A stretch of 58,812 nucleotides of DNA. Source: an uncultured Planctomycetaceae bacterium. Lineage in GTDB: Bacteria > Planctomycetota > Planctomycetia > Pirellulales > Thermoguttaceae. The notes beneath the pieces are model-generated. The model saw only the letters and a list, made by a program, of their open reading frames with translations. It did no database searches and had not been told where the DNA came from. Location of the stretch: the NCBI GenBank assembly GCA_964652875.1, contig CAZZEF010000002.1, positions 1 to 58,812 of the forward strand. The letters run 5' to 3'. Below, piece after piece: positions 7,179-50,966 of this stretch. Made by a program: the position numbers and the translations under genes. The stretch's first letter is position 1. Every line of letters starts with the position of its first letter.

Positions 7179-7285
7179 TTATACTGCTTTTATTTTAAAT
7201 TTTCCATTATTTCCGTCGATTGACTGCGTAAATCGGCGGTTCTTTAGACGTTATTACAGAAAATTCATGATGGAAACGATATACA
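7179..7285 (+). repeat. PAL element copy A (left arm), with a degenerate inverted right arm around 7474-7531
   Basis: Sequence is TTTATACTGCTTTTATTTTAAATTTTCCATTATTTCCGTCGATTGACTGCGTAAATCGGCGGTTCTTTAGACGTTATTACAGAAAATTCATGATGG. The hairpin is CCGTCGATT / AATCGGCGG with loop GACTGCGTA. Confidence 0.85.
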
Positions 7286-7544
7286 ACAGTCACACCAATG
7301 AATTTTAAATAATTATTTTCATAAAAACTTGTTTTCATACTACAAGTGGTTAAATTACACCTTTGTAAATAATTATCGCGGACTTTTTGTTCCGAATTTG
7401 AGCTGTACGCAACATCATAATTATATAGAGAATACATGCGGCAAATTCGAAAACGGCAACAGACTCTGTTGTTTGACGGATTCAACACTGAATCAAAAGC
7501 CGGAATAAAAAGTCCTGACCATTTTTATATAAGGAGAAACATTT

Positions 7545-8234
7545 ATGAATCTGTTCGACAGGTTTGAAACGAAAGAAAAAATTTTAACAGCTTTAGAAGA
7601 ATGTATTCAACAGGACATTAACGGAAATTATTTTCTTTCCAATCCGGACGACAAAGGCAAAACATCCGAATTCACTCAACTGCATCAAGAGTATCAAAAA
7701 CTTTTAGAAGAAAATGAAAAACTTAAGAAAGAAACTGCCTCTGGGCATGCCGCAATTGAAGAGCTTGCGAGTTTAAATCCGAGTGAACTCCAAAAGAAAA
7801 TGAAAAATTACACAAAAGAGAAATCGGAACTTCTCGCCAACAATGAACACCTGACCAATGAGCTTAAAAAGCTTAATGACGAACTCGAATATTATCACCA
7901 AAAAGAAAGAGAAGATCAAATTCGCACCATTCTTCATGAAGAAGCGGAAAAGCTTGGCATTCGCCCGGAGGCAATACGCGATGTTGATCGATTGATTTAT
8001 TGGGTTTATGAAAATGAAGACGGTTCGCTCACAACTGAAGACGGATTGACTATTTCGGAACTTCTCAAAAATGAGCTTGCACTTTCTCCGCATTGGCTTC
8101 CAGACTCACTAGCCGGGGGCAGTCACTCCATCCAACCTTTTCTTTCTTCCATGCCACAAAATATTCAATTCGAAAACGCAAAAAAAAATCAGGACATTAC
8201 CGGAATGATTCTGAATGCTCCCATTATTGACTAA
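7545..8234 (+). CDS. Putative capsid scaffolding protein
   Basis: 229-aa acidic coiled-coil protein (EYQKLLEENEKLKKE, LTNELKKLNDELEYYHQKE) immediately upstream of the major capsid gene. AGGAG SD precedes the ATG. Confidence 0.55.
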   Translation: MNLFDRFETKEKILTALEECIQQDINGNYFLSNPDDKGKTSEFTQLHQEYQKLLEENEKLKKETASGHAAIEELASLNPSELQKKMKNYTKEKSELLANNEHLTNELKKLNDELEYYHQKEREDQIRTILHEEAEKLGIRPEAIRDVDRLIYWVYENEDGSLTTEDGLTISELLKNELALSPHWLPDSLAGGSHSIQPFLSSMPQNIQFENAKKNQDITGMILNAPIID

Positions 8235-8246
8235 AAAGGAGAATTA

Positions 8247-9389
8247 ATGACAGCTATCAACAGTTATGAATGGAACAGTTTAAAAAGAGATTTTTCAGAA
8301 GTTCTTTCGGCCGTTACAGCGGCAGCGCCAAGTTTTCTAACGCTGTTTCCTCTTAAAGGACACGCCGTTAATACTAAACATGAATGGCTGGAAGATCAAA
8401 TTAAACCGAAACAAATAGCGTATTCTGCCTACGCATCAGGGACTTTTACTGTTACCGATTCCAGTGGCTGGGAAGCAGGAGATTATGTAAATATTCTCGG
8501 TAATTCAGCTATTTTTAAAATCGCCAGCAAAACAAGTACAACAATTGTTGTTACACTTGTGGCCGCCAATGGCGGATATTCCGCACTTTCAAGTACCGGA
8601 TCTCCCGGTTCTGGAGCTGGTACACTCTGTTTTATTTCCCGACCAATGTCAGAAGGGAGTTCAAGCGGAATTGATGTTCACCGACAATCCTCAGTCGAAT
8701 ACAATTATTCTCAAATCGTTCGACGGGATATTGCTTTGAGCGGAACATCAACCGCCGTTCAAACCTACGGAATGGAAAATGCCGCCGCTTATCAAGAAGC
8801 AGAAGCCATTCGACAAATAGTCTATGAAATGAATTCCATTGCCCTTTTCGGAGTACGTCAACAGAGAACCTCCTCTGCGCTTGGAACAACTGGCGGGCTT
8901 TATTATTTCGGAACACAAACAGGGTGCTTAAGTGATGACTATTCATCCAATCCTGCAGCACTCACCACATCGATCATCAATAAAGGTGCACAAAAGATCG
9001 TCGAAGCTGGCGGAACTCCCAATGTTATTCTTTGCGGAACAGGGCAGGCTCGTGTTATTTCCCGACTTTATAATTCGACTCTCCATGTTGAAAGAGCAGA
9101 TCAGGTCCGGGGATCTTTTGTTTCGCATATTATCAATGAATCGACAGGTGGATTAATGCAAGTCTTTGTCGAACCCAATATGCTCGATACCGATATTTGG
9201 GTTATTGATCCGAGTGGTTTCGGAATGATCTGGCTTCGCGATCTTGTTTCATCTGACGCTACGGTTACCAACCAGGACGGTTTTTCCAGAAAAATAATCG
9301 GAGAATTTTCGCTCGAATTCAAAAATTCCAAACAAAAACTCTGCCGTATCAGTGGACTTCAAGCTTCTGCAACAACACTCAACTCTTGA
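8247..9389 (+). CDS. Phage major capsid protein (HK97 fold, DUF5309/SU10-type pattern)
   Basis: 380-aa ORF with an early HEWLEDQ motif, YNYSQIVRRDIALSGT and EAEAIRQIVYEMNSIALFG, typical of this capsid family as I recall it. A scaffold-like gene lies upstream and a strong terminator downstream. Confidence 0.7.
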   Translation: MTAINSYEWNSLKRDFSEVLSAVTAAAPSFLTLFPLKGHAVNTKHEWLEDQIKPKQIAYSAYASGTFTVTDSSGWEAGDYVNILGNSAIFKIASKTSTTIVVTLVAANGGYSALSSTGSPGSGAGTLCFISRPMSEGSSSGIDVHRQSSVEYNYSQIVRRDIALSGTSTAVQTYGMENAAAYQEAEAIRQIVYEMNSIALFGVRQQRTSSALGTTGGLYYFGTQTGCLSDDYSSNPAALTTSIINKGAQKIVEAGGTPNVILCGTGQARVISRLYNSTLHVERADQVRGSFVSHIINESTGGLMQVFVEPNMLDTDIWVIDPSGFGMIWLRDLVSSDATVTNQDGFSRKIIGEFSLEFKNSKQKLCRISGLQASATTLNS

Positions 9390-9460
9390 GTATTTCAATA
9401 TTAATTTCATTCGATAAGACTCATCATATAAACTAATAAACAGAGGTCCAATCGAATGAA

Positions 9461-9495: not shown

Positions 9496-9689
9496 TCAGC
9501 TTTTTATTATGTAAACAATAACCGCAATATAGATATATTGTGATTTTGTCAATGATAACTTAATTCATACTCTCCTCTTTTAAAATTTTTCATGTCTGCG
9601 GACTTTATGTATTAATCTTACCGACAGATAAAAGAAAAATTTTAAGCGGAAACAATAGAATCAGTATTATAAAAAAGGAGTTCATCACT

Positions 9690-9920
9690 ATGAAAATTCT
9701 TTCCATCGAAAAAGGTTATAATCATAATATAATTAACTACGAGTATCACAATGAGATCTGTCAATTTATTTTTGCTCGAGATCAAGACGTTGAAACCGCT
9801 ATAAAAAATTTATCAGCACTATATGAAAAAAAAGATATGGAGGATCTCTCGAAAAAAGAAAAATCAAGAATAATTACAAAGAAATTATCAAAGAAAAATC
9901 AGGAGAATAAAACATTATGA
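9690..9920 (+). CDS. Small phage protein, unknown
   Basis: 76-aa ORF with AAGGAG SD and an ATGA overlap with the next gene. Confidence 0.5.
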   Translation: MKILSIEKGYNHNIINYEYHNEICQFIFARDQDVETAIKNLSALYEKKDMEDLSKKEKSRIITKKLSKKNQENKTL

Positions 9921-10369
9921 TATGGCTGACTCTTAACGAAGCTGTTCTGTATTTTTCCAACAGACCGTTTGCTTCTTCCTGGATTGAGGCATCAAACGAT
10001 TTGAAAACCAAATGTTTGAGCTGGTCTGAAATTATTTTGGACAGCGCCTTCACTTGGTCGCACAACGCTTTTAATATTGATATTTCCGGCAATATTATTG
10101 CGCATGAAAAAATAAAAAATGCGGTTTGCGAACAAGCTCTTTGGTTATTAGAAAAGAATAATTCAGCCGAAATTCCTTTTTTTCAAAAAGAGTTGGAGTC
10201 CGTCTCACTCAACGGCATTAGTGTAAAATTTTCTCAAAATATTAATTCTTTGACACAGATCGATAAACTTCTTTCTTTTAGCGCTGTTTTATTGATCGGA
10301 AATCTTGGGATTCTAAAAAAAGAAAACAGAGAAAACGGAACGATTTTATCAAGTATGCTTGAACGGTAA
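9917..10369 (+). CDS. Putative head-tail adaptor/connector (DnaT_2 / gp6-like pattern)
   Basis: 150-aa ORF. The N-terminus LTLNEAVLYFSNRPFASSWIEASNDLKTKCLSWSEIILD resembles the head-completion adaptor family. It lies downstream of the capsid gene. Confidence 0.45.
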   Translation: MIWLTLNEAVLYFSNRPFASSWIEASNDLKTKCLSWSEIILDSAFTWSHNAFNIDISGNIIAHEKIKNAVCEQALWLLEKNNSAEIPFFQKELESVSLNGISVKFSQNINSLTQIDKLLSFSAVLLIGNLGILKKENRENGTILSSMLER

Positions 10370-10760: not shown

Positions 10761-11233
10761 TTTTCCCTTTTATTATCCATCGTTGAGATCAAATTCTATT
10801 TAAGCATCAATTTCAACGTTTTATAAATTTATACATGAAATCAACTTCAGAAATTTTTCCAACTTCAAGAATTATTCTTCGGCTAAACATTACTTTTTTC
10901 TCTAACTCCAAAGAACCGTTCTCTAACGAAATCAATGATCGAAAATATGAAAAATAAAAATCGACAGTATAAAATACTAGTTTAAAATCTTTATGAGAAC
11001 CTTTTTTTGACATTTATATAAAGAGTCCCGTTTTAAATACGTTCAGCCCAGAATGGCATAATTTTAAAACGGGACCTTAATTAAACTTACTTTTATACCG
11101 GTTATTTTTTATTGATCTTTAATCGAAAAAACAGTCTGTATAAATATCGTTTAAAACTTTTCAATAGTGATTGGATGTATTTTATAAAACATATGAATTA
11201 ACGAAAAAATGACTTTTCGCAATGCGCCAAATC

Positions 11234-11809: not shown

Positions 11810-12593
11810 TTAAACCCTTTCCTTAATTTAACAAAAAATACTTACAACAATTTTGAATAAGAAAGTTTGATAACTTTCCCTAACTTAATAATACTTTTCG
11901 AAACAAACGAAAATTCTGACATACATTACTAATTTTTACGAGCTTAAAAATAACGATATTTTCCCAATATTTTAAAAAATAATATCGCTTTTGAATAAAA
12001 GGAACGCTAATGCGTTAAAATATTAAATATCATATATAATTTTAACTTTCTTTTACATAAAATCAACACATAAATAATATTTTTATTATTATATATCATC
12101 TTAACAGAATTATACTTTAAAAACAATTAGCCATCTCAAGAATACAAATAAAAAATAAAATTAAGCAAGATAGATAATAAAATATGGAGGATTCTTTTAT
12201 ATTAACCAAAGAAAAAGATCATTGCAAAATCAAAATAAATAACAAGATCAAAATCATCACAAAATTGCAGCTCAACTGCAATAAATAATGTTATTTTTCC
12301 ATTCTCAATGGCGTTGTAAATATTCGTTTATCGAACAAACCAGTTTAAATTTGAGAAATATCAATAAAAACTGCTATTAACGGATTTTTGATTGACCAGT
12401 TGAGAAAATCCCAAAAACACTCCTTAAAAAAAGGTTTAACGTTTTTTGATTTTTACGACTGTCTTTTTATGTCAATGTCATATATAGGCTAAAACAAATA
12501 AATAAAAACAGAAAACACCTTGGCGAAACAATGAGTGACGATATAATATTTTATATTGTTCAATTTTAAAAATTTTTCGTCGGCAAATTAAAT

Positions 12594-14276
12594 TTGTCGG
12601 TCGGAGCGTTCACGATGAAAAACACCTCGGAATCAGAAAACACGGACTTCTTTGACGATCCCTATCTGAATTTGTCGCTGGGTGACTATATGATCTTGCG
12701 TCGTATTGGATCCGGAGCCATGGCCGATGTCTATCTGGCTAAACAGATCTCTCTTGACCGCGAAATTGCACTTAAAATTCTTAAAGAAGATCTCTCCAAC
12801 GATGAAACTGGTGTCCGCCGATTTGTTCAGGAGGCACAGGCTGCCGCCCGACTTGAACACCCTAATATCGTTCATATTTATGAAGTCGGATCCGTTCTTT
12901 ATCCGGGTACCGCATCAAAACAGGGACCTTTCTCTTTCTTGCGCCGTTTTTTTTCACGAAAAATCAAACATCCGTCGATCCATTATATTGCGCAGGAATA
13001 TGTGCCCGGTCTCAATCTTCAGCAATTTTTGCGAATGCGGGGAAAACTTTCTGTTCATCAGACGCTGACCATTTTACTCAATATCTGTTCCGCACTTGAG
13101 AAAGCCGGAAAATTTGGTATTGTTCATCGCGATATCAAACCGGAAAACATTCTTTTAAGCACACAAGGAACTGTTAAAATTACAGATTTCGGCTTGGCGT
13201 ATCTCGAAACAATGCACGCAGAACGAAGTCTTTCCTTAACTCAAATTGGTTTGACTCTCGGAACCCCGCTTTACATGAGCCCGGAACAGGCCGAGGGTGG
13301 ATTAATCGACTTTCGAAGCGATCTTTATTCACTAGGCATTACCGCGTTCCATATGCTGGCCGGTCAACCTCCTTTTGTTGCAGATACTCCTCTTTCCGTT
13401 ATTCTGCAACATATGAATCGGGCCATTCCCAATATTAGAGACTTTCGACCGGAAGTATCAGAAACTTTTTCCGCTATCATTCAAAAAATGATGGCTAAAA
13501 AACCTCAAGATCGTTTTCAATCGGTTACGGATTTACTGGATCTCTTGAAAAAAGAATTAAAAGAGGTCAATCGTCAAACATCTTTTGCGGAAGACGATCC
13601 CGACCTTGAACGCTGGAATTCGGCCAAAATTTTTCAAGATCAAACAGAACAGGATGCGTTCGAAAGTTCCTTGCGACGAAACGAACTGTCCATGACGCTT
13701 CAAACTTCATTATTTCATTTAAAAACACTCAAAGAACAAGAACACCGTTCGATATGGCTAAATCCTCAAGCGAAAAGATCCTTCTTTATTCTGATCTTTT
13801 TCGCTTTTCTTACGGGGATTGCTTCCGTTTTTTTTACCCAATTATCTCCTGCTCCTTTCGCGGAACGTGAACAATCCGTTTCCATTGCCCAACTTAATAC
13901 CGTTGAAGAACAATGGGTCTTCGCGTCTCAACTTGGTACCATTGACGCCTGGAAAAGTGTTATTCGTTTCTTTCCTGAAAAAGAATATTGGAAAAGAAAG
14001 GCTCTGCAGCAGCTTGCCTTGGTTTATATGCGCGAAAATAATCGAAATGAAGCTAAAAAAATATTTATCGATTTCATCGAAATGACTCCTTTTGATAAAA
14101 AATACAAAAATTTCGGTCTTGCCGGACTTGCCTGGTGTATGGCTTGCGATGGTAAAGAAAGTGAAGCAGTTTGGACTCTTTCCAATCTTCGGTCCGAACA
14201 AAATACAACATTTGACCGGTTAACAGAAGATATTATCTCAAAAACGCAGGAAATGATTCGAAGCAGAAAAAGTTAG
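12594..14276 (+). CDS. Ser/Thr protein kinase with TM segment and TPR-like C-terminal domain
   Basis: Contains GSGAMADVYLA...ALK, HRDIKPENILL, DFGLA and GTPLYMSPEQ. A TM lies around FFILIFFAFLTGIASVFF. Confidence 0.9.
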   Translation: MSVGAFTMKNTSESENTDFFDDPYLNLSLGDYMILRRIGSGAMADVYLAKQISLDREIALKILKEDLSNDETGVRRFVQEAQAAARLEHPNIVHIYEVGSVLYPGTASKQGPFSFLRRFFSRKIKHPSIHYIAQEYVPGLNLQQFLRMRGKLSVHQTLTILLNICSALEKAGKFGIVHRDIKPENILLSTQGTVKITDFGLAYLETMHAERSLSLTQIGLTLGTPLYMSPEQAEGGLIDFRSDLYSLGITAFHMLAGQPPFVADTPLSVILQHMNRAIPNIRDFRPEVSETFSAIIQKMMAKKPQDRFQSVTDLLDLLKKELKEVNRQTSFAEDDPDLERWNSAKIFQDQTEQDAFESSLRRNELSMTLQTSLFHLKTLKEQEHRSIWLNPQAKRSFFILIFFAFLTGIASVFFTQLSPAPFAEREQSVSIAQLNTVEEQWVFASQLGTIDAWKSVIRFFPEKEYWKRKALQQLALVYMRENNRNEAKKIFIDFIEMTPFDKKYKNFGLAGLAWCMACDGKESEAVWTLSNLRSEQNTTFDRLTEDIISKTQEMIRSRKS

Positions 14277-38785: not shown

Positions 38786-38941
38786 TTTATGCGATGGGGC
38801 AACTTTATAATTGTCTGTTGGACAATCACAGCAAAGAATAAAACTGGAACGCAGATGTCTGATCAACATACCTGCAAAACAGATATCCCCGCCGGTTTTG
38901 ATACCTTGGATCAACTTGTAATTCAAAGGGTTACAAGTCAC

Positions 38942-39610: not shown

Positions 39611-39642
39611 TCAACCGCAAATCATAATCAGGGATGAATTTG

Positions 39643-41694
39643 ATGAAAAAGGCAATTAAATTATTTTACGTTTTGAGTGCAGCCATTTTTGTGTTTTCAA
39701 ATTTTTTGTCCGCGGCGGAAAAAAATGGACCGACGATAAAAGAGCGGCCGGTCATAAAAATTGCGGTTGCTGACAAGAAAACTCAAAATGATTCGAACTC
39801 CGGTAACTCGCCGGTTAATCCGGTAAAAAAAGCCCTTTCCGCGGAAGACCGGTCTTTTTTGAAAAAAACAATTGGACTTTGTTCCGTATTGAAGAAGGAT
39901 TGTTCTGAACCCGATCAGAAAAAACAAATTCAACGTTTTGACATTCTTAAGAAAACAATCGCGGAATTGAAAGAAAATATTGCCAAAAGTTCCGATGAAG
40001 ACAACACACAATCATGGATTAATTTTCTTGAATTGAACGAGCTGGAAAAAGAACTCTCTTCGGACAAGCTCGATCTTAAGGCTTGCCAAAATACGCTTAA
40101 GGCTCTTAATTCGCAGGAATCCGGCTTGGAATTCGATATTTTTTTACCTCTTCGGGAAAAATTGACGGATCTTCTCAAGCAGAAAAAAACCAGCTGGACT
40201 CAGCAGGAAAAAGACGATTTCAAATACGTTTGCGACCAGCTTCCCAAAGATTTGGAAAATTTGCTGCGCGGATACGACAACAATAAAGCGGAACTGGCGA
40301 CAATTTCACTGGCCTATCTCCGCGATTATTCCGTAAATCAAACAACTTATGAAGAATTGAAAAATTTGGTTTTGGACTATTTTTCCAAGCCGAACTGTCG
40401 TCTTGTCATTTCCGACAAACTAATGCGAAAAGACAAAAAACAGAGCATCAATGAAAACATTGAAGTTTCCGAATACATCCGCGGCTCACAGGTTATCGGC
40501 AACGGCACCGTTTCCGGAACAGTTGACGCTCAATATGTTCCCAATGAAGAAAAAGCTGAAATTAAAATCGTCATTCACGCAACGGTCAATACGCAAACTT
40601 CCGCCTATCAAAACAGCGTTCAAGTCAAGTCTGACAATACAGGAACCATGTATGCGCAAAAATCGATTTTTTTCTCTGATTATATTACGTCAATGCCCGC
40701 CATTGTCAAAGGGAGCATGAATTCCAATATAACCGGAATTTTCTCCGATCGGACAATGGGTTGGAACATTATTCAACAGCGTGTTGCTGAAGAACAACCT
40801 TATTCCAAAGCGGAATCGCAGCGCCGGATGGAGGAACGTTTTTCCGAACGTCTGGATCGAGAAGTTGATTCCAGAATCGCGCCGACCAAAGAGTATCTGG
40901 ACCTGAAATTTTATAAATTTCTTCATGAGATCGATTTCGTTCCGCGCTTTATCAAATCAAGCACTACCGAAAAGAATCTATTCTGGTCTGCCTTGCTCGC
41001 CTCCAAAACCCAGTTGGGTCTTCCGAAAAACGATCTTCTTCCCCCAAAAGATAAAAATTCCTCTTCCGATGTTGATCTGTCTCTGCATGTCAGCGCCATT
41101 AATAATGCGTTTTTCAACAGCTTTTCCGGTAAACGCGTTTCCGATCAGGATATCGCCAAACGGCTTTCCGCTGTTTTTACTTCCGAAAAGAACAACGACA
41201 AGAAAACAACAGACACCCCTCTTTGGCTTATTTTCAGCAGTGACCTGCCAATTGACGTTTCATTCGCGAATAATGAAATAAAAACGGTCATGCACTTGGA
41301 CGGCTTTGAAAAAGACGATAAAAGTTATCCGGAACTGACTATCGAATTTGTCTATAAAATTGAAAAAACAAAAGAAGGTTTTGTCATTCGAAGAACCGTT
41401 TTGGACGCGCGCCCCGGCGATCTTGCCCCCGGTCAAATCATTCCCGCCCGATATCAGGCGATTCGAACGCTCATTCTTGACAAACTCGGTCCTTCACTCA
41501 AAGACAAAATAGAAGTCAATCCCATTGATACCGTAAAAATCGCAAAGGATCGTCAGAAAAAGGAATCCGCTGATAAACCTTCAAAAGAAAAAGTCGGTCT
41601 GCGCCCCGGCTTCTTTCTGCCCGTCGCCTGTTCTGCAAGCAACGGATGGCTGAGTTTGCAGTATATTTTTGTTCCTGATAAAAATTCCAAATAG
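39643..41694 (+). CDS. Large secreted protein, unknown function
   Basis: 683 aa from MKKAIKLFYVLSAAIFVFSNFLSA (an alternative ATG lies at 39634). No motif recognised. Confidence 0.7.
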   Translation: MKKAIKLFYVLSAAIFVFSNFLSAAEKNGPTIKERPVIKIAVADKKTQNDSNSGNSPVNPVKKALSAEDRSFLKKTIGLCSVLKKDCSEPDQKKQIQRFDILKKTIAELKENIAKSSDEDNTQSWINFLELNELEKELSSDKLDLKACQNTLKALNSQESGLEFDIFLPLREKLTDLLKQKKTSWTQQEKDDFKYVCDQLPKDLENLLRGYDNNKAELATISLAYLRDYSVNQTTYEELKNLVLDYFSKPNCRLVISDKLMRKDKKQSINENIEVSEYIRGSQVIGNGTVSGTVDAQYVPNEEKAEIKIVIHATVNTQTSAYQNSVQVKSDNTGTMYAQKSIFFSDYITSMPAIVKGSMNSNITGIFSDRTMGWNIIQQRVAEEQPYSKAESQRRMEERFSERLDREVDSRIAPTKEYLDLKFYKFLHEIDFVPRFIKSSTTEKNLFWSALLASKTQLGLPKNDLLPPKDKNSSSDVDLSLHVSAINNAFFNSFSGKRVSDQDIAKRLSAVFTSEKNNDKKTTDTPLWLIFSSDLPIDVSFANNEIKTVMHLDGFEKDDKSYPELTIEFVYKIEKTKEGFVIRRTVLDARPGDLAPGQIIPARYQAIRTLILDKLGPSLKDKIEVNPIDTVKIAKDRQKKESADKPSKEKVGLRPGFFLPVACSASNGWLSLQYIFVPDKNSK

Positions 41695-41796
41695 AATTAA
41701 CTGACTCCGAACATATAAATTTAAAGTCTGTCCTGAAAAATTGAACCCCGTTTCAGACCGTTCCTTTTCTCTTTCGAACTAATTTCAGGATGGACT

Positions 41797-41875
41797 TTTA
41801 TACAGATCTCTTTTAATTTTTCGTCATTTCTGCCGATTAACTGCGTAAATCGGAGGTTCGTTTAATACTTAAAAT
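41797..41875 (+). repeat. PAL element copy C
   Basis: Sequence is TTTATACAGATCTCTTTTAATTTTTCGTCATTTCTGCCGATTAACTGCGTAAATCGGAGGTTCGTTTAATACTT. Confidence 0.75.
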
Positions 41876-42209
41876 CTAATATTAAAATCGACATAATTGA
41901 CTTTTCCCCCATTGGGTATTACAATAGATCCAGCTCAGTCGGTTGAATTTAAATTTCATTTTCCAACGACAAATAATTACCGGTTTCGCAAAATTAACTG
42001 ATCAAAAAGAAGTAATACCGGCTGCATAATAAACCGTTCCGTCCGGTTTCGCGAAATATTTTCGAAAAATCTTTCGCAGACAAACAAGGTTCAGAAGTAA
42101 TTACGAAAAAATCTTTCTGTTTGCGTTCTCAATCAAGTTTTGGACAAAGAGATTGTCCTGATTCCGAATCAAATACGGACAGAACCGCATTATCTGTCAG
42201 ACCGGACGA

Positions 42210-42310
42210 TTATATACTGACCGTATTGTTAATTTCCGATTGTTCCGCCGTTTGACGTCATGAATCGGCTGTTTCTGACATTGAAAAGGGAAATTCATAA
42301 TGAAAACTTG
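42210..42310 (+). repeat. PAL element copy K
   Basis: Sequence is TTATATACTGACCGTATTGTTAATTTCCGATTGTTCCGCCGTTTGACGTCATGAATCGGCTGTTTCTGACATTGAAAAGGGAAATTCATAATGAAAAC. Confidence 0.75.
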
Positions 42311-42371
42311 ATAACATCTTCAAAACTAATTATTTGCGATTTTGATCAAATATCAATTCAGGAAAAAAGAA

Positions 42372-45300
42372 ATGAAAAAATTATTGCTGATTGCTTTGAC
42401 GCTTTTTTGTTCTATTTGTCAGGCTCAAACGTTGCAGGAAGGATTTACAACTCCCCCCGCGAGCGCCAAACCGGAAGTTTGGTGGCATTGGACAAGCGAC
42501 GATATCAACAAAGAAGGAATGACCGCCGATCTCGAATCGATGAAAAAAGTCGGGATCGACCGCGCCTATATTTTCTTCGTCAGCGGACCGGGCAAGGGGA
42601 TCGGATTGACTCCTGAACGGCTTGAATTCTATCGTTATGCGGCGGCGGAAGCCAAACGACTCGGGCTGACTCTCGGAATGCATAACTGTCCCGGATGGTC
42701 ATCCAGCGGAGGTCCCTGGATCACTCCCGAACAGTCGATGAAAGGACTCGTCTGTTCGGAAACTTTTTTGACCGGTGGACAAAAGATCAATATCAAACTG
42801 CCGCAGCCTCCAACACGGCTTGATTTCTATCGCGATGTTGCTGTTCTGGCTGTTCCGGTAAAAGACGGTCCGTTCGAACCGAAAATCGTTCTTAACGGAA
42901 AAGAAATCACCAAGCCCCAATTTCGGATCCCTGTCGCAGGCGAAGGAACCCAAGCCGATCTTGAATGCCGCTTCGATAAAAAAATTTCCGCCAACTCAAT
43001 TGGAATCGTTTTTTCGACATCCTCGTTAAACGTTGGCGGTAAAATCGACGCCGTCGACGAATACGGAAAGACACGTGAAGTTGGTCAGTTCCGGCTTCGA
43101 AAATTCGGCTGGCTCAATCACAGCGACCCGAACACCTGGCAAATTCTTGATCTCGCCGAAAAGGACGGATCTCCCGTTAAAGCGAAAACGTTCCGCCTTC
43201 ATTTTACCGGTCAGACCGGCAAGGAATTTCCCGTCCCGGTCAGCAAAATTCGTTTTTTCAATAATTCAATGATCGCCGATATCGACCAGAAGAACTCTTC
43301 AACAGACCGATTCGGCTATCAGGAACCAGTTCGACCTGATGAAAAAGGGATCAACCCGAACGATGTGATCGATCTTTCCGACAAGATGCGGAATGACGGA
43401 TCGCTTGACTGGAACGCTCCGATCGGGAATTATGTCGTTTTGCGAATCGGATGCACCGCGCTGGGTAAAATGTGCGCACCGGCTCATAAAAACATGCGGG
43501 GACTCGAATGCGACAAGCTGGCCAAATTCGGAATTGAAGAGCATTGGAAAAACATGATGGGTCCGGTTCTTAATCAGGTCAATCCTTACGGAACACTCCG
43601 CGTCTGTCTTATCGATAGTTACGAGATGGGCGGACAAAACTGGACATTCGAACTTGAAAATATTTTCAAAAACAAACGCGGATATTCGATGCGAAAATAT
43701 TTTCCTGCACTGTTCGGATACATGATCGGATCGGGCGCCGATTCCGCCGCATTTCTTTATGATTTCCAGCGAACCGTTTCCGACTGTTTTGTCGAAAATT
43801 ATTATGACCGTTTTTATGAACTTTGCAACGCCAATAATATTATGTCGAGTTGCGAATCGTATAACGGCCCGTTTGACGATTTACAGTGCGCGCATAAAAT
43901 ACCGCTCGCCGTAACTGAATTTTGGGTTGGCGGTAATGGATTGGGATCCCGTTACTCCGCGTCCGCGGCCCGTATTCACGGTCAGTCCGTCAACGGAGCC
44001 GAATCATTCACCGCGGAACCCGGTCCCGGCCGATGGCAGCAGGATCCCCGCCAGCTCAAGCGATACGGCGACATGGCTTGGATCGAAGGTGTCAACCTCC
44101 TGATCCTTCACAGTTACGTCCAGCAGCCTTACGGACAGGCCAAACCGGGCATGACGCTCATGCAATACGGAACTCATTTTGGCCGCAACAATACCTGGTG
44201 GTCAGAATCAAAGGGCTGGATGGATTATATGGCGCGCGGTCAGTTCCTTCTGCAAAGCGGTCACAGCACTTCGGAAATTCTCATACTGGCCGGTGAAAGC
44301 CGTCCGAACGCCTGCGGTATTCGAAAGGAGTTAACCAATGCCGGTTACGATTTCGATTACTGCGATGCCGAAACCATTCATAAACGCCTCTCCTTTAAAA
44401 ACGGTAAAATTCATATCGACGGAGCGCTGGATTATGATGTCTTTTTCCTTGGATCAGAACGGCATCCATCGCTGGCAACCCTGCGCAAAGTCAAAGATCT
44501 GCTCGATCAGGGCGCGTTTGTCGCCGGTCAAAAACCGCTTGGTTCACCCAGTTTGGCTGATAAAAAAGATCTTACGGAATACAATCATCTTGTTCAAACA
44601 ATTTGGATCGATAAAAAATATCGAACCTTCCTTGAAACGAATGATGCACTTACGGCCTTGAAACAGGCCAAAATAGCCCCTGATTTCCAAAGCGTTAATC
44701 CGAATTTCATTACGATCTCCCGCGAAACACAACAAGAGCGGATCTATTTTATTATGAACACATCGGACGACGACTCGTTTGGTGTCTGCTCTTTCCGTGT
44801 TACAGGAATGACTCCTGAATTTTGGGATCCAATGACCGGAAAAATCTCGCCCGCTGCTTTTTGGAAACAGACCGAAAACAGACGAACGGAACTCCCGGTC
44901 AAACTGGCTCCGAACGGATCGACTTTTGTTGTTTTTTCAAAAAAACAGATCGAAGATCATCCCGTTGCTCTGATCGAAGGAAAAATCAAACCAGACAAAA
45001 ATAACAGTCTGACAATACTTGAAGCCAAATATCGGGTGCGCGGCGATAATACCGGAGGTGTTGATGTTTTGGATCGGGTAGTTCAGGCGATGGACAAGGA
45101 AGGCTTGAAACTTTTAGTCGAAAACAATACACTCGGCCGCAGGGACCCTTACCCGGATCAGTTCAAAGAACTTCTGCTGCATTATCGAATCAACGGAAAA
45201 GAAAAGATCGGCATTTATCCGGAACATACGAGTATTTATCTCCCTCTGATTCCGGAAGACGCTTTTATCGCCAATTATTTTACCGAGAGCAACAGACCGT

Positions 45301-45941
45301 CTGCGGAATTTACCCGCCCCGGAACCTTTGCTGTTAAACTCGCCTCGGGCAAAACTCTTTCTGCCTCCTGTTCTCAAACGATAAACGTACTTTCCCTGAA
45401 TGACAATTGGACCGTTGAATTCACCAAAGATCTCGGCGCGCCGGAGGGCAAAATTCCGTTCGGCAAACTGGTTTCCTGGTCAGATCGACCGGAATCCGGA
45501 ATCAAATACTTCTCCGGCAGTGCCGTTTACCGTAAAACCGTCTCTCTTACTCCGGACGAGTTCAAAACCAAAAAACATTTCTTACTTGATCTTGGGGAAG
45601 TAAAAAATCTGGCACGGGTCATTGTCAACGGAAAGGATCTCGGTATTCTTTGGACACCGCCTTTCTCAATGGACATTACCTCCGCGCTCAAGCCGGGCAA
45701 TAATCTTCTGGAGATCAAGGTGGTCAATCTTTGGGTCAATCGATTGATCGGCGATGAATTTCACCCAACCGCCAATCAAACCGAAAAGCCCGATTGGGTT
45801 GTCAAAGGACTTCCGAATTCCGGCGACGGTCGTTATACCTGGTCCTCCTGGAAGGGATGGAACAAAGACGACAAACCGCTTTCGTCCGGTCTTCTTGGAC
45901 CGGTTTCCCTCGAATCCCGCCCGGTACTTCCATTAAAGTAA
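42372..45941 (+). CDS. Large secreted glycoside-hydrolase-like protein (GH106-type rhamnosidase-like architecture, tentative)
   Basis: Start at MKKLLLIALTLFCSICQA. The N-terminus has PPASAKPEVWWHWTSDDINKEGMTADLESMKKVGI. The C-terminus has the sugar-binding-type motif FSGSAVYRKTV...VNGKDLG...PFSMDIT...GNNLLEIKVVNLWVNRL. Confidence 0.6.
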   Translation: MKKLLLIALTLFCSICQAQTLQEGFTTPPASAKPEVWWHWTSDDINKEGMTADLESMKKVGIDRAYIFFVSGPGKGIGLTPERLEFYRYAAAEAKRLGLTLGMHNCPGWSSSGGPWITPEQSMKGLVCSETFLTGGQKINIKLPQPPTRLDFYRDVAVLAVPVKDGPFEPKIVLNGKEITKPQFRIPVAGEGTQADLECRFDKKISANSIGIVFSTSSLNVGGKIDAVDEYGKTREVGQFRLRKFGWLNHSDPNTWQILDLAEKDGSPVKAKTFRLHFTGQTGKEFPVPVSKIRFFNNSMIADIDQKNSSTDRFGYQEPVRPDEKGINPNDVIDLSDKMRNDGSLDWNAPIGNYVVLRIGCTALGKMCAPAHKNMRGLECDKLAKFGIEEHWKNMMGPVLNQVNPYGTLRVCLIDSYEMGGQNWTFELENIFKNKRGYSMRKYFPALFGYMIGSGADSAAFLYDFQRTVSDCFVENYYDRFYELCNANNIMSSCESYNGPFDDLQCAHKIPLAVTEFWVGGNGLGSRYSASAARIHGQSVNGAESFTAEPGPGRWQQDPRQLKRYGDMAWIEGVNLLILHSYVQQPYGQAKPGMTLMQYGTHFGRNNTWWSESKGWMDYMARGQFLLQSGHSTSEILILAGESRPNACGIRKELTNAGYDFDYCDAETIHKRLSFKNGKIHIDGALDYDVFFLGSERHPSLATLRKVKDLLDQGAFVAGQKPLGSPSLADKKDLTEYNHLVQTIWIDKKYRTFLETNDALTALKQAKIAPDFQSVNPNFITISRETQQERIYFIMNTSDDDSFGVCSFRVTGMTPEFWDPMTGKISPAAFWKQTENRRTELPVKLAPNGSTFVVFSKKQIEDHPVALIEGKIKPDKNNSLTILEAKYRVRGDNTGGVDVLDRVVQAMDKEGLKLLVENNTLGRRDPYPDQFKELLLHYRINGKEKIGIYPEHTSIYLPLIPEDAFIANYFTESNRPSAEFTRPGTFAVKLASGKTLSASCSQTINVLSLNDNWTVEFTKDLGAPEGKIPFGKLVSWSDRPESGIKYFSGSAVYRKTVSLTPDEFKTKKHFLLDLGEVKNLARVIVNGKDLGILWTPPFSMDITSALKPGNNLLEIKVVNLWVNRLIGDEFHPTANQTEKPDWVVKGLPNSGDGRYTWSSWKGWNKDDKPLSSGLLGPVSLESRPVLPLK

Positions 45942-45973
45942 TTTTCAAAAACTGCTTGTTCTGTTCTGATATC

Positions 45974-46016
45974 GCGCCGGATTTCTGTCATAAACAGTCA
46001 CAACGGCGCTTTTCGT
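45974..46016 (+). terminator. Possible terminator after the hydrolase gene
   Basis: GCGCCG...(24-nt loop with inner CTGT/ACAG)...CGGCGC followed by TTTTCGTTATTTT. Confidence 0.4.
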
Positions 46017-46017
46017 T

Positions 46018-46124
46018 ATTTTATACTGCACTCCTTTTTAATTTTCCGTTATTTCCGCCGATTGACTGCGTGAATCGGCTGTTCTTTGTACGTTATAATG
46101 AAAAATTCAACAAGGAACCAGTAT
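46018..46124 (+). repeat. PAL element copy D (best preserved)
   Basis: Sequence is TTTTATACTGCACTCCTTTTTAATTTTCCGTTATTTCCGCCGATTGACTGCGTGAATCGGCTGTTCTTTGTACGTTATAATGAAAAATTCAACAAGGAACCAGTAT. Positions 46040-46124 are identical to 48886-48970. Confidence 0.9.
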
Positions 46125-46150
46125 CGAACAGAATCTTAACTGAATGGAGA

Positions 46151-46245
46151 TAAATGGAATTGACCATGTACGTTAAGTCACACCCCCAGGTGAATATACT
46201 TCCCAAATGGGGATTATGAATGGAATTAACCATGTACGTTAAGTC
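46151..46245. repeat. Two-unit direct repeat: 29-nt units, 37-nt spacer
   Basis: TAAATGGAATTGACCATGTACGTTAAGTC lies at 46151-46179 and TGAATGGAATTAACCATGTACGTTAAGTC at 46217-46245. A partial TGAATGGAGA lies at 46141. Confidence 0.8.
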
Positions 46246-46320
46246 GCTCTTCTTCAGAATATCGAAATTGAGTCTCCTGTAAATTTTCAGTAAATATGGT
46301 TCATTCTGTATTTCGGATAA

Positions 46321-46346
46321 GAAAAATGGGACACAGAATTCTGTCC
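46321..46346 (-). terminator. Terminator of the LRR gene
   Basis: The minus strand reads GGACAGAATTCTGTGTCC followed by CATTTTTC, 70 nt past the stop at 46415. Confidence 0.5.
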
Positions 46347-46414
46347 TGTTAAAATTAAATGTTATGTTTCATCATCGGGAAAGTCCGTCGCTGTTCCGGA
46401 ATCGATAAACGCTG

Positions 46415-47374
46415 TTATTTTGGAGGAATTTTCATCATAAACGGAATTTCATTTTCTTTTGCGTATTCTTGCGCAACGGAATTGGGCGCACCGGTAATAA
46501 TAAATTCACCGCAACAAAGGAACGCGTTATCTCCAATTTTTGTTACACCTTTTGGAAGATCAACAGATCTTAGGGAATCGCAGGACTCGAAGGTTCCTTC
46601 TTCAATTTCCTGAACACCTTCGGGAATTTCAACTGACTTTAAAGACTTGCAATCATTGAATGCGTGTTCCCCTATCTTCGTTATCCCTTGAGGAAATTCT
46701 ATCGATTTTAAACCGGTACAACCAGAGAACGCACAGGCACCAATCTCCTTTACATTTTCGGGAATGACTATTTTTCCTTCGGCGGACGGCCAGGCAACAA
46801 GAATTTTTCCGTCCCGACTTAACAGCATGCCGTCTTTTTCCGTATAAGACAAATTTTCTTCGGAAATAATTATTTCTGTTAAGGACGCGCAATACGCGAA
46901 CGCATCGTTATCAATTTTCTCAACGCTGGAGGGAATAACCACCGACCTCAAAGAATAACAGTATTTAAAAGCATCTTTTTGAATCATCGTCACCCCTTGA
47001 GGAATAATTATCGATTTTAAGGCGCAGCCGCAAAACACTCCCCGTCCTATTTTGGTCATAGCTTTGGGGATCTCTATTGACGACAAAGACTCGCAGCCGC
47101 CAAATGCGTTTTCTCCCATTGTCATTACCCCTTGAGGAATAGTCACCGATGTTAAAGACGAACAATATCTGAACGCGTTTCTTCCAATTGTTTTTACTTC
47201 TTCGGGAATTACCGCCGACGTTAGGGATTCACAGTTCATAAAAACCTTCGGACCGATCGACGTTACTGTTTTTTCGTCAATTTCCGCCGGAATTACGAGA
47301 TTATTCCCGGTGCCGATGTACCCTGTAATTTTGATGCCGTTGTCTTGTTCTTTCCATTCATATTCTGAATTCAT
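46415..47374 (-). CDS. BspA-type leucine-rich-repeat protein (LRR_5)
   Basis: About 23-aa periodic units of the form F..C.SL.SV.IP.GV..IG..AF..C, repeated about 10 times. No signal peptide is present. Confidence 0.85.
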   Translation of the reverse strand: MNSEYEWKEQDNGIKITGYIGTGNNLVIPAEIDEKTVTSIGPKVFMNCESLTSAVIPEEVKTIGRNAFRYCSSLTSVTIPQGVMTMGENAFGGCESLSSIEIPKAMTKIGRGVFCGCALKSIIIPQGVTMIQKDAFKYCYSLRSVVIPSSVEKIDNDAFAYCASLTEIIISEENLSYTEKDGMLLSRDGKILVAWPSAEGKIVIPENVKEIGACAFSGCTGLKSIEFPQGITKIGEHAFNDCKSLKSVEIPEGVQEIEEGTFESCDSLRSVDLPKGVTKIGDNAFLCCGEFIITGAPNSVAQEYAKENEIPFMMKIPPK

Positions 47375-47624
47375 TGATACTTTCTCTTTTTTTCTAATTT
47401 CATTTTATCCTAGTGCAACAATTATTTTTATTTAAGTCGCATTATGTTTTCGACTAATTGAATCAACGGGCGTTTTTAGAATTTTCGAACTTATGCTTAT
47501 TTCCAATTACAAGTATGTCTCAACCGCCGATTTACATTTTCAACGCGCAATACAAAATATTGACAGGAACGTTTTTTACATTGAAAGCGTTTTTTCATTT
47601 TACATCAATTTCGAACGTTCTCCA

Positions 47625-48221
47625 TTACTCTTCAATTTCCAACCGCCTTTCAAAATCATCGTCAGTCCAGCAGCCGGAAAGATCTCCCGAGTAAGCAACG
47701 TCCGCAAAACCGATTCCAAGAACTTTGTCCCGACAAGTAATTACACCTATTCCATGCTCTGCCTCTAATTCTGTTTCGAACGAATATCCGACCAGAGCAA
47801 TACCGTCCCGGACCACATCGGTCAAGGTGATACCTGAAAAATAAAAGATGCGGCCAAGTCCTTTGACAGAACTCAATTCCGGAAAATCGCCATCTTCTCC
47901 AAAATCATATAGATCCTCAAGTACTTTCATTTCTAATTTACGGTATTTTAGATAGAATGCATGCAGATCTTGAAGGATCACATCTTTGATCTTTTCTTCA
48001 TTTGTCTTTGTGTATTCCCAAGCTGCCCTTTGAGCAGTCAGCAGCTCATTGGGGACGGCATTGTTTTCCGTATGCCCCAAATCCACTATCAAACCGGAGA
48101 ACGGATTATCTTCGTCATATTCTTCCTGTTCTTGAATAAAATCCTGCCATGCGGGAAATTTCCATATAATCCATGCTCCGTTATCATCCTGCGTAAAGTC
48201 CGAAATCGATTCTGATGACAT
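47625..48221 (-). CDS. Acidic immunity-like protein (DUF6985-like pattern, tentative)
   Basis: 198 aa and highly acidic. The C-terminal ELEAEHGIGVITCRDKVLGIGFADVAY resembles the EHG-containing motif of that family as I recall it. Confidence 0.5.
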   Translation of the reverse strand: MSSESISDFTQDDNGAWIIWKFPAWQDFIQEQEEYDEDNPFSGLIVDLGHTENNAVPNELLTAQRAAWEYTKTNEEKIKDVILQDLHAFYLKYRKLEMKVLEDLYDFGEDGDFPELSSVKGLGRIFYFSGITLTDVVRDGIALVGYSFETELEAEHGIGVITCRDKVLGIGFADVAYSGDLSGCWTDDDFERRLEIEE

Positions 48222-48396
48222 TGCAAAAACTCTTTCTTCATAAGTAATATTATTTGACGAATGCTATTTCACCTCAATCAATCACTTCTATTTTTACAAA
48301 AAAAGAAGTGACCGTAAAAAAGGAGAACAGAAGTAAAATTTTATCGGTGTATACACAATATACACCGATAGTATTATGATTTTTTCATTCTAACCC

Positions 48397-48462
48397 TAAA
48401 AAACAACCGTTTTTCGCAATCACTCGGAGGAATTTAATTAATTTAAAAGGAGTACGGTATAA
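48397..48462 (-). repeat. PAL element copy G (diverged)
   Basis: The reverse complement reads TTATACCGTACTCCTTTTAAATTAATTAAATTCCTCCGAGTGATTGCGAAAAACGGTTGTTTTTT. Confidence 0.55.
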
Positions 48463-48864
48463 CATCTATGACCTTACAAACAAGTCCACTTCTCAATATT
48501 TTATAGCCAACATTGCAGAACGATCGATCAATACAAATTCAAGGATTTCTTTTTTATTCCGTCGGATCTCCGACCCTTGAAGAAAATCGGTCTTAACTCT
48601 TTTTTATTTCCTTCCATTCGGTTTTCTGTCCTTTTCCCGTTTGCAGTGATTAAATATATTTTCCATAATTACCCGACAAAGTCAAGTACTGTTTGATTGA
48701 CGCCTGATATAAAAGGATACCCAATCGTTTTTTGAAACCTAACCAGCACTATTGGTCCGCCCCTATTACCCAATTAATTCGAAACGGATTCCGTTCTATA
48801 TTGAGTTTAGTAAAACTGGCTCCTGGCAAAACGATTTCTATTAATAGCGTTTTTTCAAGACTAC

Positions 48865-48970
48865 TTTTATACTGCTCTTATTTTAAATTTTCCGTTATTT
48901 CCGCCGATTGACTGCGTGAATCGGCTGTTCTTTGTACGTTATAATGAAAAATTCAACAAGGAACCAGTAT
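48865..48970 (+). repeat. PAL element copy E
   Basis: TTTTATACTGCTCTTATTTTAAATTTTCCGTTATTTCCGCCGATTGACTGCGTGAATCGGCTG... Its last 85 nt are identical to copy D. Confidence 0.9.
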
Positions 48971-49019
48971 AACATTATTTTTTCCTGTTTCTTATACTTA
49001 CGAACGACTCTTTTCAATC

Positions 49020-50021
49020 TCAGTCCGGTATAACGGACATGCGGGCAATTTGAATCATCATTAAAATGAAGCCAAGAAAAAATATTCCAATAGCGGGCTG
49101 GAGAATAAAAAGCGAGAAAAGCGGCAAACAAAACAATAGTAAAATATAACAAAATATTTTTATTTCGACAGGATATTCTTTTTTTAATTCATTCTTCTCT
49201 TTTTTCTTTCTTTGATAAAAACAGGCATTCCCGCCCATTGCGGTAAGTCCTCCGTAAAATGCGGTTGCAGCGCAGATAAACGCCGCGGCTTTTTCTTCTC
49301 TTAAAAACAATCCAATAACCAAGAGATACCAAAGAGTCAAGGTGAACATAAAAAACATAAAAGCTTTTTCTCGTTTTTCATTTTTGTGCGATCCTGTCTT
49401 TCCGTTACTGGAGAGAAACCTCTGCTTCTCTCTGTTTTTTCGTTCTATGTATCGCAAAAGCGTTATCGTAAAATTCACCAAGGCAACTATCAGAAACAGA
49501 ATACCAACGCTGCCGAAATACAGATAAACCTCAAGAGCTTTTTCCGGCCCAAGTTGGGTTGTTCCGACAAGAGTCCCCTTGATTCGAGCATAACGGGGAC
49601 AGCTTTTATAGATCTCCATCTGTACTTTGTCCCCAGCATTAAAAAATGAGGCAGCAGTTCCCTTACAAGTAAAAGAATATTTTTTCCCGTTGAACTGATA
49701 CTCCCCTTCATACCCCTTAGGGAAAAAACTTTTTGTAATCCGAAATGTTTTCCGAACATTTCCTGTCGGTTCCGATTCGATACACCAGCCGTTTTGCCGA
49801 GAAGATAATGAAATAACCGCGCAATCGGGCCGCAATGCGACAAAGGCCAAAATATTCCAAGCCAGAATAAAAATGACCCCTCCAAACGCGGACACCGGGT
49901 GTCTGAACATTCCATTCGATTGGACAACATTTTTCAAACCCGATAATCTGATCTTCCGAGACATTTTCTTTCTCCAATTTCGAGAAGGATCTGTATTTTC
50001 GAACCTTTCAATTATTCCCAA
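49020..50021 (-). CDS. Multi-TM membrane protein with DUF3592-like central beta region
   Basis: 333 aa. TM segments flank EGEYQFNGKKYSFTCKGTAASFFNAGDKVQMEIYKSCPRYARI. Confidence 0.6.
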   Translation of the reverse strand: MGIIERFENTDPSRNWRKKMSRKIRLSGLKNVVQSNGMFRHPVSAFGGVIFILAWNILAFVALRPDCAVISLSSRQNGWCIESEPTGNVRKTFRITKSFFPKGYEGEYQFNGKKYSFTCKGTAASFFNAGDKVQMEIYKSCPRYARIKGTLVGTTQLGPEKALEVYLYFGSVGILFLIVALVNFTITLLRYIERKNREKQRFLSSNGKTGSHKNEKREKAFMFFMFTLTLWYLLVIGLFLREEKAAAFICAATAFYGGLTAMGGNACFYQRKKKEKNELKKEYPVEIKIFCYILLLFCLPLFSLFILQPAIGIFFLGFILMMIQIARMSVIPD

Positions 50022-50065
50022 AATTAATTACCGTCCGACTGATCGACGTCTTGAACATTTTTGTT

Positions 50066-50425
50066 TTAATATATTGACCATTTCCTGGTCCCTTTTGTTG
50101 CTGCATTACTTTCCATTTTTGTCACGTTCAAAAGATCTCGGGCGAACGTTGCCGCTCTGTTTTTTCCCTGTCTTGATTTCAAATATTCGCGGCAATTCCC
50201 TTTATCAATCGTCCGATTCAACTGAAGCGCAAGTTCGTAAAGAAGCGCCAGAAATGGTGCGGAGTCGTTATAGCGCCAGCTGTCGACCGATCGCTGAAAA
50301 CTCTCAAAAATAACTTCCGAATATTTTGGAAATTCTTTTGCAACAATATTAAAATGTTCCGCCCATAGAAATGAGGCGGTTAAATTCTTCTTCCAAAGTG
50401 TCCGAATCGATTCATGCAAAAACAT
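50066..50425 (-). CDS. Unknown protein, C-terminal part of a probably frameshifted gene
   Basis: The ORF starts inside a T5 run that also ends the upstream ORF. Confidence 0.4.
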   Translation of the reverse strand: MFLHESIRTLWKKNLTASFLWAEHFNIVAKEFPKYSEVIFESFQRSVDSWRYNDSAPFLALLYELALQLNRTIDKGNCREYLKSRQGKNRAATFARDLLNVTKMESNAATKGTRKWSIY

Positions 50426-50726
50426 TTGGGAAGTTCGTCAAACCGGTTGTCGTCGCGATACCCGTTGAAACGTCCCCATTTTTTATATTCGTAAAATCGC
50501 CCGTTGCCAAAATCGCCGTTTCAACAAACATGATAAAATTGCGATAAAGCGGAAAAGACTCTTTGTCAGACCTGTAAATACCTGTTATCCGTTGATGAAT
50601 TTCGTTTCCGGAAGATTTTCGGTTGGAGAATAAAACGAAACAGCACCTGAACATCACCCCCATTTCCCTGACAGGGGATACTATTTGACAACCAATCGAC
50701 AACAGGCAAATAACATTGTTTTCCAA
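50412..50726 (-). CDS. Unknown protein, N-terminal part of a probably frameshifted gene
   Basis: It ends with GTTTTTGCATGA. Removing one T fuses it to 50066..50425. Confidence 0.35.
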   Translation of the reverse strand: MENNVICLLSIGCQIVSPVREMGVMFRCCFVLFSNRKSSGNEIHQRITGIYRSDKESFPLYRNFIMFVETAILATGDFTNIKNGDVSTGIATTTGLTNFPNVFA

Positions 50727-50899
50727 TCTTTTCAGGCATTTTATAAATAATTCGAAATAACAGAAGAATTCAGCGTCGAAAGGACATCAGCAAGTTTTTT
50801 CCGCCGGCTCGGAAAAACTTTTGCTCCCGGACAAATCTTTCGATAAATTGTCTTTCATAACAGTCTCCTGTTCAATCGGATCCAATATAAATTGATCAA

Positions 50900-50966
50900 G
50901 GCCCTCCGCTCATTAACCGTTCGCCGAATTCCGAAAATTTCTTCATCTGTATGTTTTACAGTATAA
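50900..50966 (-). repeat. PAL element trace J (degenerate)
   Basis: CCGAAAATTTCTTCATCTGTATGTTTTACAGTATAAC resembles the outer end ACGGAAAATTTAAAAGAAATGCAGTATAAAT. The hairpin is not preserved. Confidence 0.3.

Follow-up and report, generated by a model that had tools for sequence, protein, structure and literature searches.

Good catalogues of small, dispersed fold-back repeats exist for Proteobacteria, Firmicutes, cyanobacteria and Bacteroidota, and the Correia elements (CREE or nemis) of Neisseria, the RUP elements of pneumococcus (reviewed in PMC3049150 and PMC2229807) and the ERIC (IRU) sequences of Enterobacteriaceae are among the systems closest to the one considered here. Mobilization by a TA-targeting enzyme of the IS630/Tc1-mariner type has been proposed for Correia and RUP elements, and the TA flanks of RUP in particular are attributed to mobilization in trans by an IS630-family transposase. 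Such repeats can also act on their surroundings: the RNA hairpin formed by a whole Correia element is an RNase III substrate and its ends can act as promoters, while ERIC sequences affect mRNA stability (PMC10969869). [quoted passage not shown] Here we describe a palindrome-bearing repeat family in a 58,812-nt stretch of DNA from an uncultured planctomycete (contig CAZZEF010000002.1 of GenBank assembly GCA_964652875.1, positions 1 to 58,812, hereafter the window), which we judge likely to be a lineage-specific, mostly old, MITE-like family of non-autonomous fold-back elements in a member of the class Planctomycetia. In the titles and abstracts returned by a full-text literature search on MITEs and Planctomycetes, no fold-back repeat family is described for this group.

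The window was searched principally with an nhmmer profile built from eight seed copies, after which a second-round profile was run. Twelve solid copies were recovered, all at E<1e-5, with the eight seeds scoring E 4e-15 to 4e-31 and the four copies outside the seed scoring E 8e-6 to 1.5e-9; one probable copy (10894-10974) and about four weak remnants lie beyond these twelve. Pairwise identity among the 12 copies runs from 44% up to 94-96%. Chance is excluded as the origin of the family because three separate expectations all fall far below what is observed: the hairpin pattern GCCGATT-N9-AATCGGC, with two mismatches allowed, is matched six times where 0.45 would be expected, a count attained in no shuffle out of 100; a three-block pattern has four matches against 0.00 expected; and 20 dinucleotide-shuffled windows yield 0.05 hits per window at E<0.01. 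A preliminary description, made from the letters of the same stretch, had listed ten clear copies, and all ten were recovered with essentially the same coordinates, three of the non-seed ones independently by nhmmer, with three copies (38711-38811, 41795-41897 and 48364-48462) proving longer than described. Its three degenerate traces fared unevenly: 39516-39610 is a full copy whose two arms are separately detected, 9564-9610 is marginal (E 0.28), and 50900-50966 was matched neither by the whole-element profile nor by an arm-only profile. Absent from that list were the copies at 22214-22317 (+) and 10894-10974 (-) and the weak remnants at 31983-32032 (-), 52342-52456 (+) and 12549-12638 (+).

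Alignment of the copies yields a consensus of about 105 nt, TTTATACTGC-n5-TTTTAAATTTTCCGTTATTTCCGCCGATTGACTGCGTGAATCGGCnGTTCTTTnnACGTTAnAAnGAAAATTCAnnATGAAAnCGGTATAA, with individual units spanning 93-111 nt. The unit is bounded by inverted termini, TTATACTG ... CAGTATAA, which the preliminary description had overlooked. These termini open imperfect arms of about 33 nt, the left of which reads TTATACTG-N8-TTTAAATTTTCCGT. Since the left ~33 nt and the reverse-complemented right ~33 nt are both versions of TATACYG-ATTTC-T..T.AATTTTCYGT, the element is a single long imperfect fold-back. The family profile also matches the opposite strand of the best copies with 14-25 bits, and an arm-only profile finds the arms within the window solely as inverted pairs, at elements. 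Between the arms lies a central hairpin with a 7-bp stem, GCCGATT/AATCGGC, and a 9-nt loop, followed on its right side by an asymmetric extra segment of about 10 nt; the inner hairpin and outer imperfect pairing are found as originally described. In a three-helix model, 78.5% of cells pair, versus 30-45% when the partners are slid by 1-3 columns. Conservation, expressed as the majority fraction across nine canonical copies, is 0.96 in the left terminal octamer, 0.86 in the left mid-arm and 0.81-0.87 in the hairpin stems; the loop, which had been singled out as specially conserved, stands at 0.78 against 0.76 for the whole element and thus enjoys no special conservation. At least two subfamilies can be told apart by the right arm.

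None of the 12 solid copies overlaps an open reading frame (ORF) of 100 aa or more, even though coding sequence takes up at least 76% of the window. One explanation for a conserved segment beside genes is that it forms the tail or an exon of a small-protein family, and frame 2 of the + orientation is indeed open throughout in three of the four best copies. That same frame contains stops in 38939-39048 and in the diverged copies, however, and stops interrupt most frames in most copies. In the four best copies, the 30 variable sites are split 10/9/11 over its three codon positions, and other frames are as even (9-11 each), such that no frame displays the codon-position bias expected of a protein under purifying selection. 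Moreover, indels are not multiples of three, the element has neither a start codon nor an upstream ORF, and the translated frames, searched as a concatenation against 5.8 billion predicted proteins, returned no match. The stops, the evenness of the variable sites and the lack of any protein match refute a coding origin, to which we assign practically no chance.

The twelve copies are spread over nine intergenic regions that include divergent, tandem and convergent arrangements, with seven copies on the + strand and five on the - strand, which agrees with the preliminary view that an element found in either orientation to its neighbors is neither a plain terminator nor a plain promoter. A repeated protein-binding or promoter module that is not mobile DNA, such as an operator, a nucleoid-protein site or an outward promoter, might nonetheless be imagined here: eight of the element ends point toward a gene start no more than 300 nt away, the nearest at 23 nt (39513-39610) and 26 nt (42210-42315), and the termini read outward as TATAAA or TATAAT, resembling a -10 box. 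Yet the ends that face gene stops are about as numerous as those facing starts, and include those in convergent regions. No sigma-70-type -35 box is present at the right spacing, and a promoter scan does not pick out the elements. The flanking genes are functionally unrelated, encoding among others a transporter, a glycosidase, ParA, a methyltransferase and phage head proteins, and the orthologous genes in relatives lack the module. We therefore regard a stationary binding or promoter module as highly improbable.

An alternative with more to commend it is that the repeat is a structured RNA or transcript-level cis-element under selection, for example a terminator, a 3′-end stabilizer, an RNase III target or a small RNA gene, perhaps derived from an exapted mobile element. 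A stop codon precedes six of the copies by 7-100 nt, and in the + orientation TGTTCTTT comes after the inner hairpin. When folded as single strands, the best copies modestly outperform shuffles (z about -2.3 to -2.5), and old copies that are only 55-70% identical keep the arm pairing, with parallel changes in the two arms of 27799-27885 and 39513-39610. Against this, several diverged copies fold no better than shuffles (z +0.1 to -0.9). Covariation across the aligned copies, through which an RNA structure was to be told from a DNA site, shows no excess: the observed covariation score is reached by 86 of 500 shuffles, and no covariation measure rises above the shuffle control, with 86-408 of 500 shuffles reaching the observed values. 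The pairing is what an inherited inverted repeat would be expected to give. Of the six stop-proximal copies, three are sense and three antisense to the upstream gene. A terminator scan passes over the elements, which is explained by their 9-nt loop and weak T-run. With Rfam 15, three tRNAs alone reach the gathering threshold in the window, and nothing is found at the copies at E<=5 (38600-49100). The same intergenic regions also occur in relatives without elements, which are thus not needed for the genes concerned. We consider selection for a structured RNA unlikely on these grounds.

The manner in which copies begin and end argues for a transposed unit. The two youngest copies, 46019-46127 and 48864-48973, are 94-96% identical, and their similarity breaks off sharply on both sides, with TTTTATACTG as the left limit and CCAGTAT as the right; thus, what was duplicated is the element itself and not a larger segment. 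Apart from this pair, copies are 44-83% identical. Comparison with relatives places the family within one lineage. Syntenic contigs of three related planctomycete lineages are free of copies and of arm modules: about 33 kb was covered for two relatives that share ~72-73% protein identity (contigs L012 and L015/L017), and about 43 kb for the more distant L032 and L034. In L012 the spacer between the pterin-binding-enzyme gene and parA measures 14 nt and in L017 it measures 15 nt, compared with 211 nt in the window, where it holds a full copy. This junction is supportive of insertion, not decisive, because the extra DNA amounts to 197 nt and not to one clean element.

The family is a discrete, sharp-ended, non-coding unit that is intergenic in both orientations, comprises subfamilies with a wide spread of ages, and is absent from syntenic relatives. 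Its copies fall within the MITE size range at 93-111 nt, carry TTATACTG / CAGTATAA as terminal inverted repeats leading into the imperfect arms, lack coding capacity by each measure given above, and are dispersed as 12 copies among nine intergenic regions. With terminal inverted repeats, no coding signature, no RNA family and no counterpart in syntenic relatives, the earlier comparison of this dispersed, non-coding, palindrome-bearing layout to MITEs of the Correia/ERIC type holds up well. We propose that a transposase supplied in trans would have bound the arms and spread the copies. Both ends carry a near-invariant TA/TATA (T-TA-TA-CTG ... CAG-TA-TA-A), which points, though it offers no proof, to a DDE enzyme of the IS630/Tc1-mariner type that targets TA. 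A TA-duplicating enzyme of that type would leave such TA ends. Most copies would by now be old and probably immobile, and any effect on neighboring genes would be secondary, the candidates being a long RNA hairpin that acts as a 3′-end stabilizer or RNase III substrate, a weak terminator in the + orientation, and outward promoters.

Several observations weigh against a MITE-like origin. The TA/TATA is inseparable from the inverted repeat because it is palindromic, and beyond it no target-site duplication is apparent, with direct repeats in a copy's own flanks having a mean score of 3.95 as compared with 3.99 for mismatched flanks. Pfam scans of 40 ORFs in the window, including all of at least 190 aa, identified no transposase, integrase or Y1 enzyme, in line with what the preliminary description had noted for the window. 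The between-species empty site at the parA junction differs by 197 nt and not by one clean element length, and no empty site was seen within the species, as all same-species contigs, including those from other samples, carry the same copies. Because most copies appear to be old, current mobility is, judging from their divergence, unsupported. Finally, the family was found in no other collection that was searched, namely metagenomes, IMG/VR, INPHARED, PLSDB and contigs of phages with a related head protein. It is also conceivable that the host recruited the repeat as a transcript-level or chromatin-level module (a bidirectional 3′-end hairpin, an RNase III site or a nucleoid-protein site), or that the copies were mobilized via an unusual enzyme that recognizes the central hairpin and not via a classical end-binding DDE transposase. 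Recruitment would account for the persistence of both arms and a central hairpin, in some cases one of different sequence, in copies that share just 55-70% identity. We see these readings as improbable.

Among described families, the planctomycete repeat resembles Correia elements in being a dispersed fold-back of ~100-150 bp with terminal inverted repeats of ~26-33 nt, in comprising subfamilies, in lying mostly in intergenic DNA in both orientations, and in having TA at both ends. The two differ in host phylum and in copy number, which here reaches tens and not hundreds so far as seen, and of the two it is Correia elements for which an IHF site, promoter activity and RNA processing are on record. 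There is no sequence similarity: the 26-nt Correia repeat has no match in the window within three mismatches, and the termini here read TTATACTG... RUP and other IS630-derived MITEs share a length of ~107 bp, the lack of coding capacity, the inverted ends and the TA flanks; the 40 scanned ORFs, by contrast, include no IS630-type element with matching ends, and the TA is here a putative duplication. ERIC sequences are imperfect palindromes of ~127 bp found in intergenic, transcribed regions, with old diverged copies and an unknown transposase, all of which recalls the planctomycete family, but their sequence and hosts are unrelated, and whereas ERIC is common to several genera, the planctomycete family is missing from relatives at ~72-73% identity. 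The family works like a Correia, RUP or ERIC-type element and is a member of none of those families. It adds one more case to an ordinary class of element and opens no new mechanism.

Similar reasoning applies to REP sequences and their composite BIMEs. In such a scheme, a Y1 (HUH) transposase, either a RAYT or a TnpA of the IS200/IS605 type, would recognize the central hairpin in single-stranded DNA. In the planctomycete repeat, the central hairpin is GC-rich and conserved and its loop partly so, and two or three copies may be clustered in one intergenic region, much as clustered extragenic palindromes with GC-rich stems form BIMEs. However, REPs are GC-rich palindromes of 20-40 nt with a GTAG or CGTC head (PMC3733652), and the unit described here does not fit that description, being ~105 nt long with extended AT-rich inverted arms and having TTTCC before the hairpin in place of a conserved head (CGTC occurs in 7178-7285 alone, via a single substitution). 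In addition, the termini are more conserved than the hairpin, there is no strand bias (7 + versus 5 -), and none of the 40 scanned ORFs contains a Y1-transposase domain or encodes a RAYT. A REP/BIME-like or IS200/IS605-derived origin is consequently very unlikely in our estimation.

Copies of the family extend beyond the window, whereas a lack of any further copies would, by the preliminary description, have refuted it. The same-species contig L016 runs 1.8 kb past the window end and carries two further diverged copies (E 4e-9 and 7e-7) at its positions 48-141 and 1018-1093, along with a third, cut copy whose 3′ arm occupies positions 1-25 at the contig start; these family members lie ~0.7-1.8 kb past the window end. 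The ends of three contigs from the same sample are also informative about assembly. Five of the six lie inside copies, and the sixth falls in a tandem repeat within a gene; contig L006 starts in the array of 39-nt units of the DUF1559 gene. The family thus breaks short-read assemblies of this organism. The 31-mers at the termini of L006 and L030 each occur just once in the sequence examined, which hints at extra copies elsewhere, a hint that is inseparable from assembler behavior and is given little weight.

In the wider collections, the three-block pattern had no match in JGI metagenomes, two patterns had none in IMG/VR, blastn found no match among INPHARED phages or PLSDB plasmids, and no copy is present in nine phage contigs that encode a related head protein. 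Twelve matches to a looser arm-to-arm pattern were obtained in the JGI metagenomes, all in AT-rich contigs and none fitting the family profile, and these were dismissed as chance. So were five loci matched by a 20-nt hairpin/loop pattern in a 596-Gb genome collection, which come from unrelated genomes of high GC content and lack the remainder of the element, the pattern being too short. DUF1559 paralogues, used as a route to other regions of the same genome, led just to orthologous loci of distant relatives, which carry no copies. The element can serve as a sequence tag for spotting this uncultured lineage in metagenomes, and its copies mark lineage-specific insertions in otherwise syntenic operons.

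The youngest pair represents subfamily A: 46019-46127 (+; E 8.5e-31) is a full copy in a convergent intergenic region, and 48864-48973 (+; E 4.2e-31), also full, is the top match to the family profile and the point inside which the same-species contigs L016 and L030 end. These two copies, in the same orientation, bracket a 2.8-kb segment with a GC content of ~0.38-0.40, compared with 0.46-0.48 upstream, that carries a gene for a BspA-type leucine-rich repeat protein and a DUF6985 gene; the segment could be a MITE-bounded insertion or a recombination substrate. Just downstream of 46019-46127, a 30-nt direct repeat, ATRAATGGAATTRACCATGTACGTTAAGTC, occurs at 46150-46179 and 46216-46245 (93% identical, 66 nt apart; family D17). 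Subfamily B is represented by the full copy 38939-39048 (-; E 1.5e-30), 31 nt inside which contig L006 ends. Further full copies are found at 7178-7285 (+; E 3.5e-29, both arms detected), between divergent genes and 260 nt upstream of a block of phage-type head genes; at 33298-33408 (-; E 1.3e-23), starting 7 nt past the stop codon of the pterin-binding-enzyme gene in the 211-nt spacer; and, in diverged form, at 42210-42315 (+; E 7.8e-23), upstream of a GH106 rhamnosidase ORF.

The remaining solid copies are altered in one part or another. In 41795-41897 (+; E 4.7e-19), the right arm is degraded, and this is the sole copy with a flanking direct repeat matching at 9/10 positions, ATGGACTTTT / ATTGACTTTT, located at 41785-41794 and 41895-41904. 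The motif (T/G)GACTT also precedes the 5′ ends of 33298-33408 and 39513-39610, as might result from a preference for certain targets or from a left end that extends slightly farther. The copy at 39513-39610 (-; E 4e-15 as a seed; arms separately E 5e-4 and 4e-3) has kept both arms around a different core and lies upstream of a gene for a 686-aa protein. Upstream of the corresponding 686/701-aa gene of unknown function, L012 (12290-12870) and L015 (4290-4865) have in common a non-coding stretch of ~590 nt with 73.6% identity, of which just ~100 nt is recognizable in the window, at 39353-39458 between two element copies; this stretch could represent a long leader, or else a small gene or RNA that lacks annotation. 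The four copies outside the seed are all diverged. In 27799-27885 (-; E 1.5e-9), the variant CTGTTTTTCCG occurs in both arms; 48364-48462 (-; E 1.4e-7) adjoins at its 3′ end a perfect palindrome at 48341-48371, TTATCGGTGTATACACAATATACACCGATAG, which has a 13-bp stem and resembles two element termini (ATCGGTGTATA / TATACACCGAT) joined head to head; 38711-38811 (+; E 8e-7 for the match 38711-38782) lies 19 nt past the stop codon of a POT transporter gene; and 22214-22317 (+; E 8e-6 for the match 22216-22315) has a degraded 5′ terminus.

The probable degenerate copy at 10894-10974 (-), in a convergent intergenic region, scores E 0.029 and then E 0.002 with a second-round profile from which it was left out. 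The weaker relatives have the 5′ module in common, and none is significant individually. They comprise a possible remnant at 31983-32032 (-; E 0.03-0.05) that consists of the left arm and part of the hairpin; a possible distant relative at 52342-52456 (+; E 0.049, repeat families D11 and D12), in which the 5′ module TTTTATATTG..TTTGAAATTT is kept alongside a different GC-rich hairpin and whose 3′ part is similar to 9564-9664; another possible distant relative at 9564-9664 (+; E 0.28), in which the arm pairing AAAATTTTTC / GAAAAATTTT is kept; and a weak remnant at 12549-12638 (+).

The window as a whole is bacterial chromosome, as it contains tRNA genes and the housekeeping genes ftsH, fabH, parA and a PCMT methyltransferase gene, in addition to encoding the DUF1559 protein. 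The closest named homologues of the POT transporter come from metagenome-assembled genomes of Planctomycetia and Thermoguttaceae. Positions 1 to ~11000 are phage-derived, with genes for a DUF551 protein (2576-3115, -), an SU10-type major head protein (8247-9389, +) and a head-tail adaptor (9917-10369, +). The copy 7178-7285 and the weaker relatives 9564-9664 and 10894-10974 lie inside this block, and the host repeat is thus also present in phage-like DNA, in keeping with reports of MITEs common to hosts and their phages (PMC11602168).

Other repeats also occur in the window. A second, unrelated repeat family occupies the phage-like left end at 43-117, 2326-2440, 2468-2582 and 2847-2921, with the unit TTCTTCCTTCTTTTCTCCGYGYCTTTGYGCCTYTGYGTGAGATAA, which in two copies is then followed by its own inverted partner, CACACAAAGGCACGGAGGCGCAAAGG (families D3/D7, pairs I7/I8). 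Two tandem repeats lie within coding sequence: six 39-nt units at the 3′ end of the DUF1559 gene (25895-26178), and about 2.2 copies of a 165-nt unit in a GidB-domain ORF (23622-23992).

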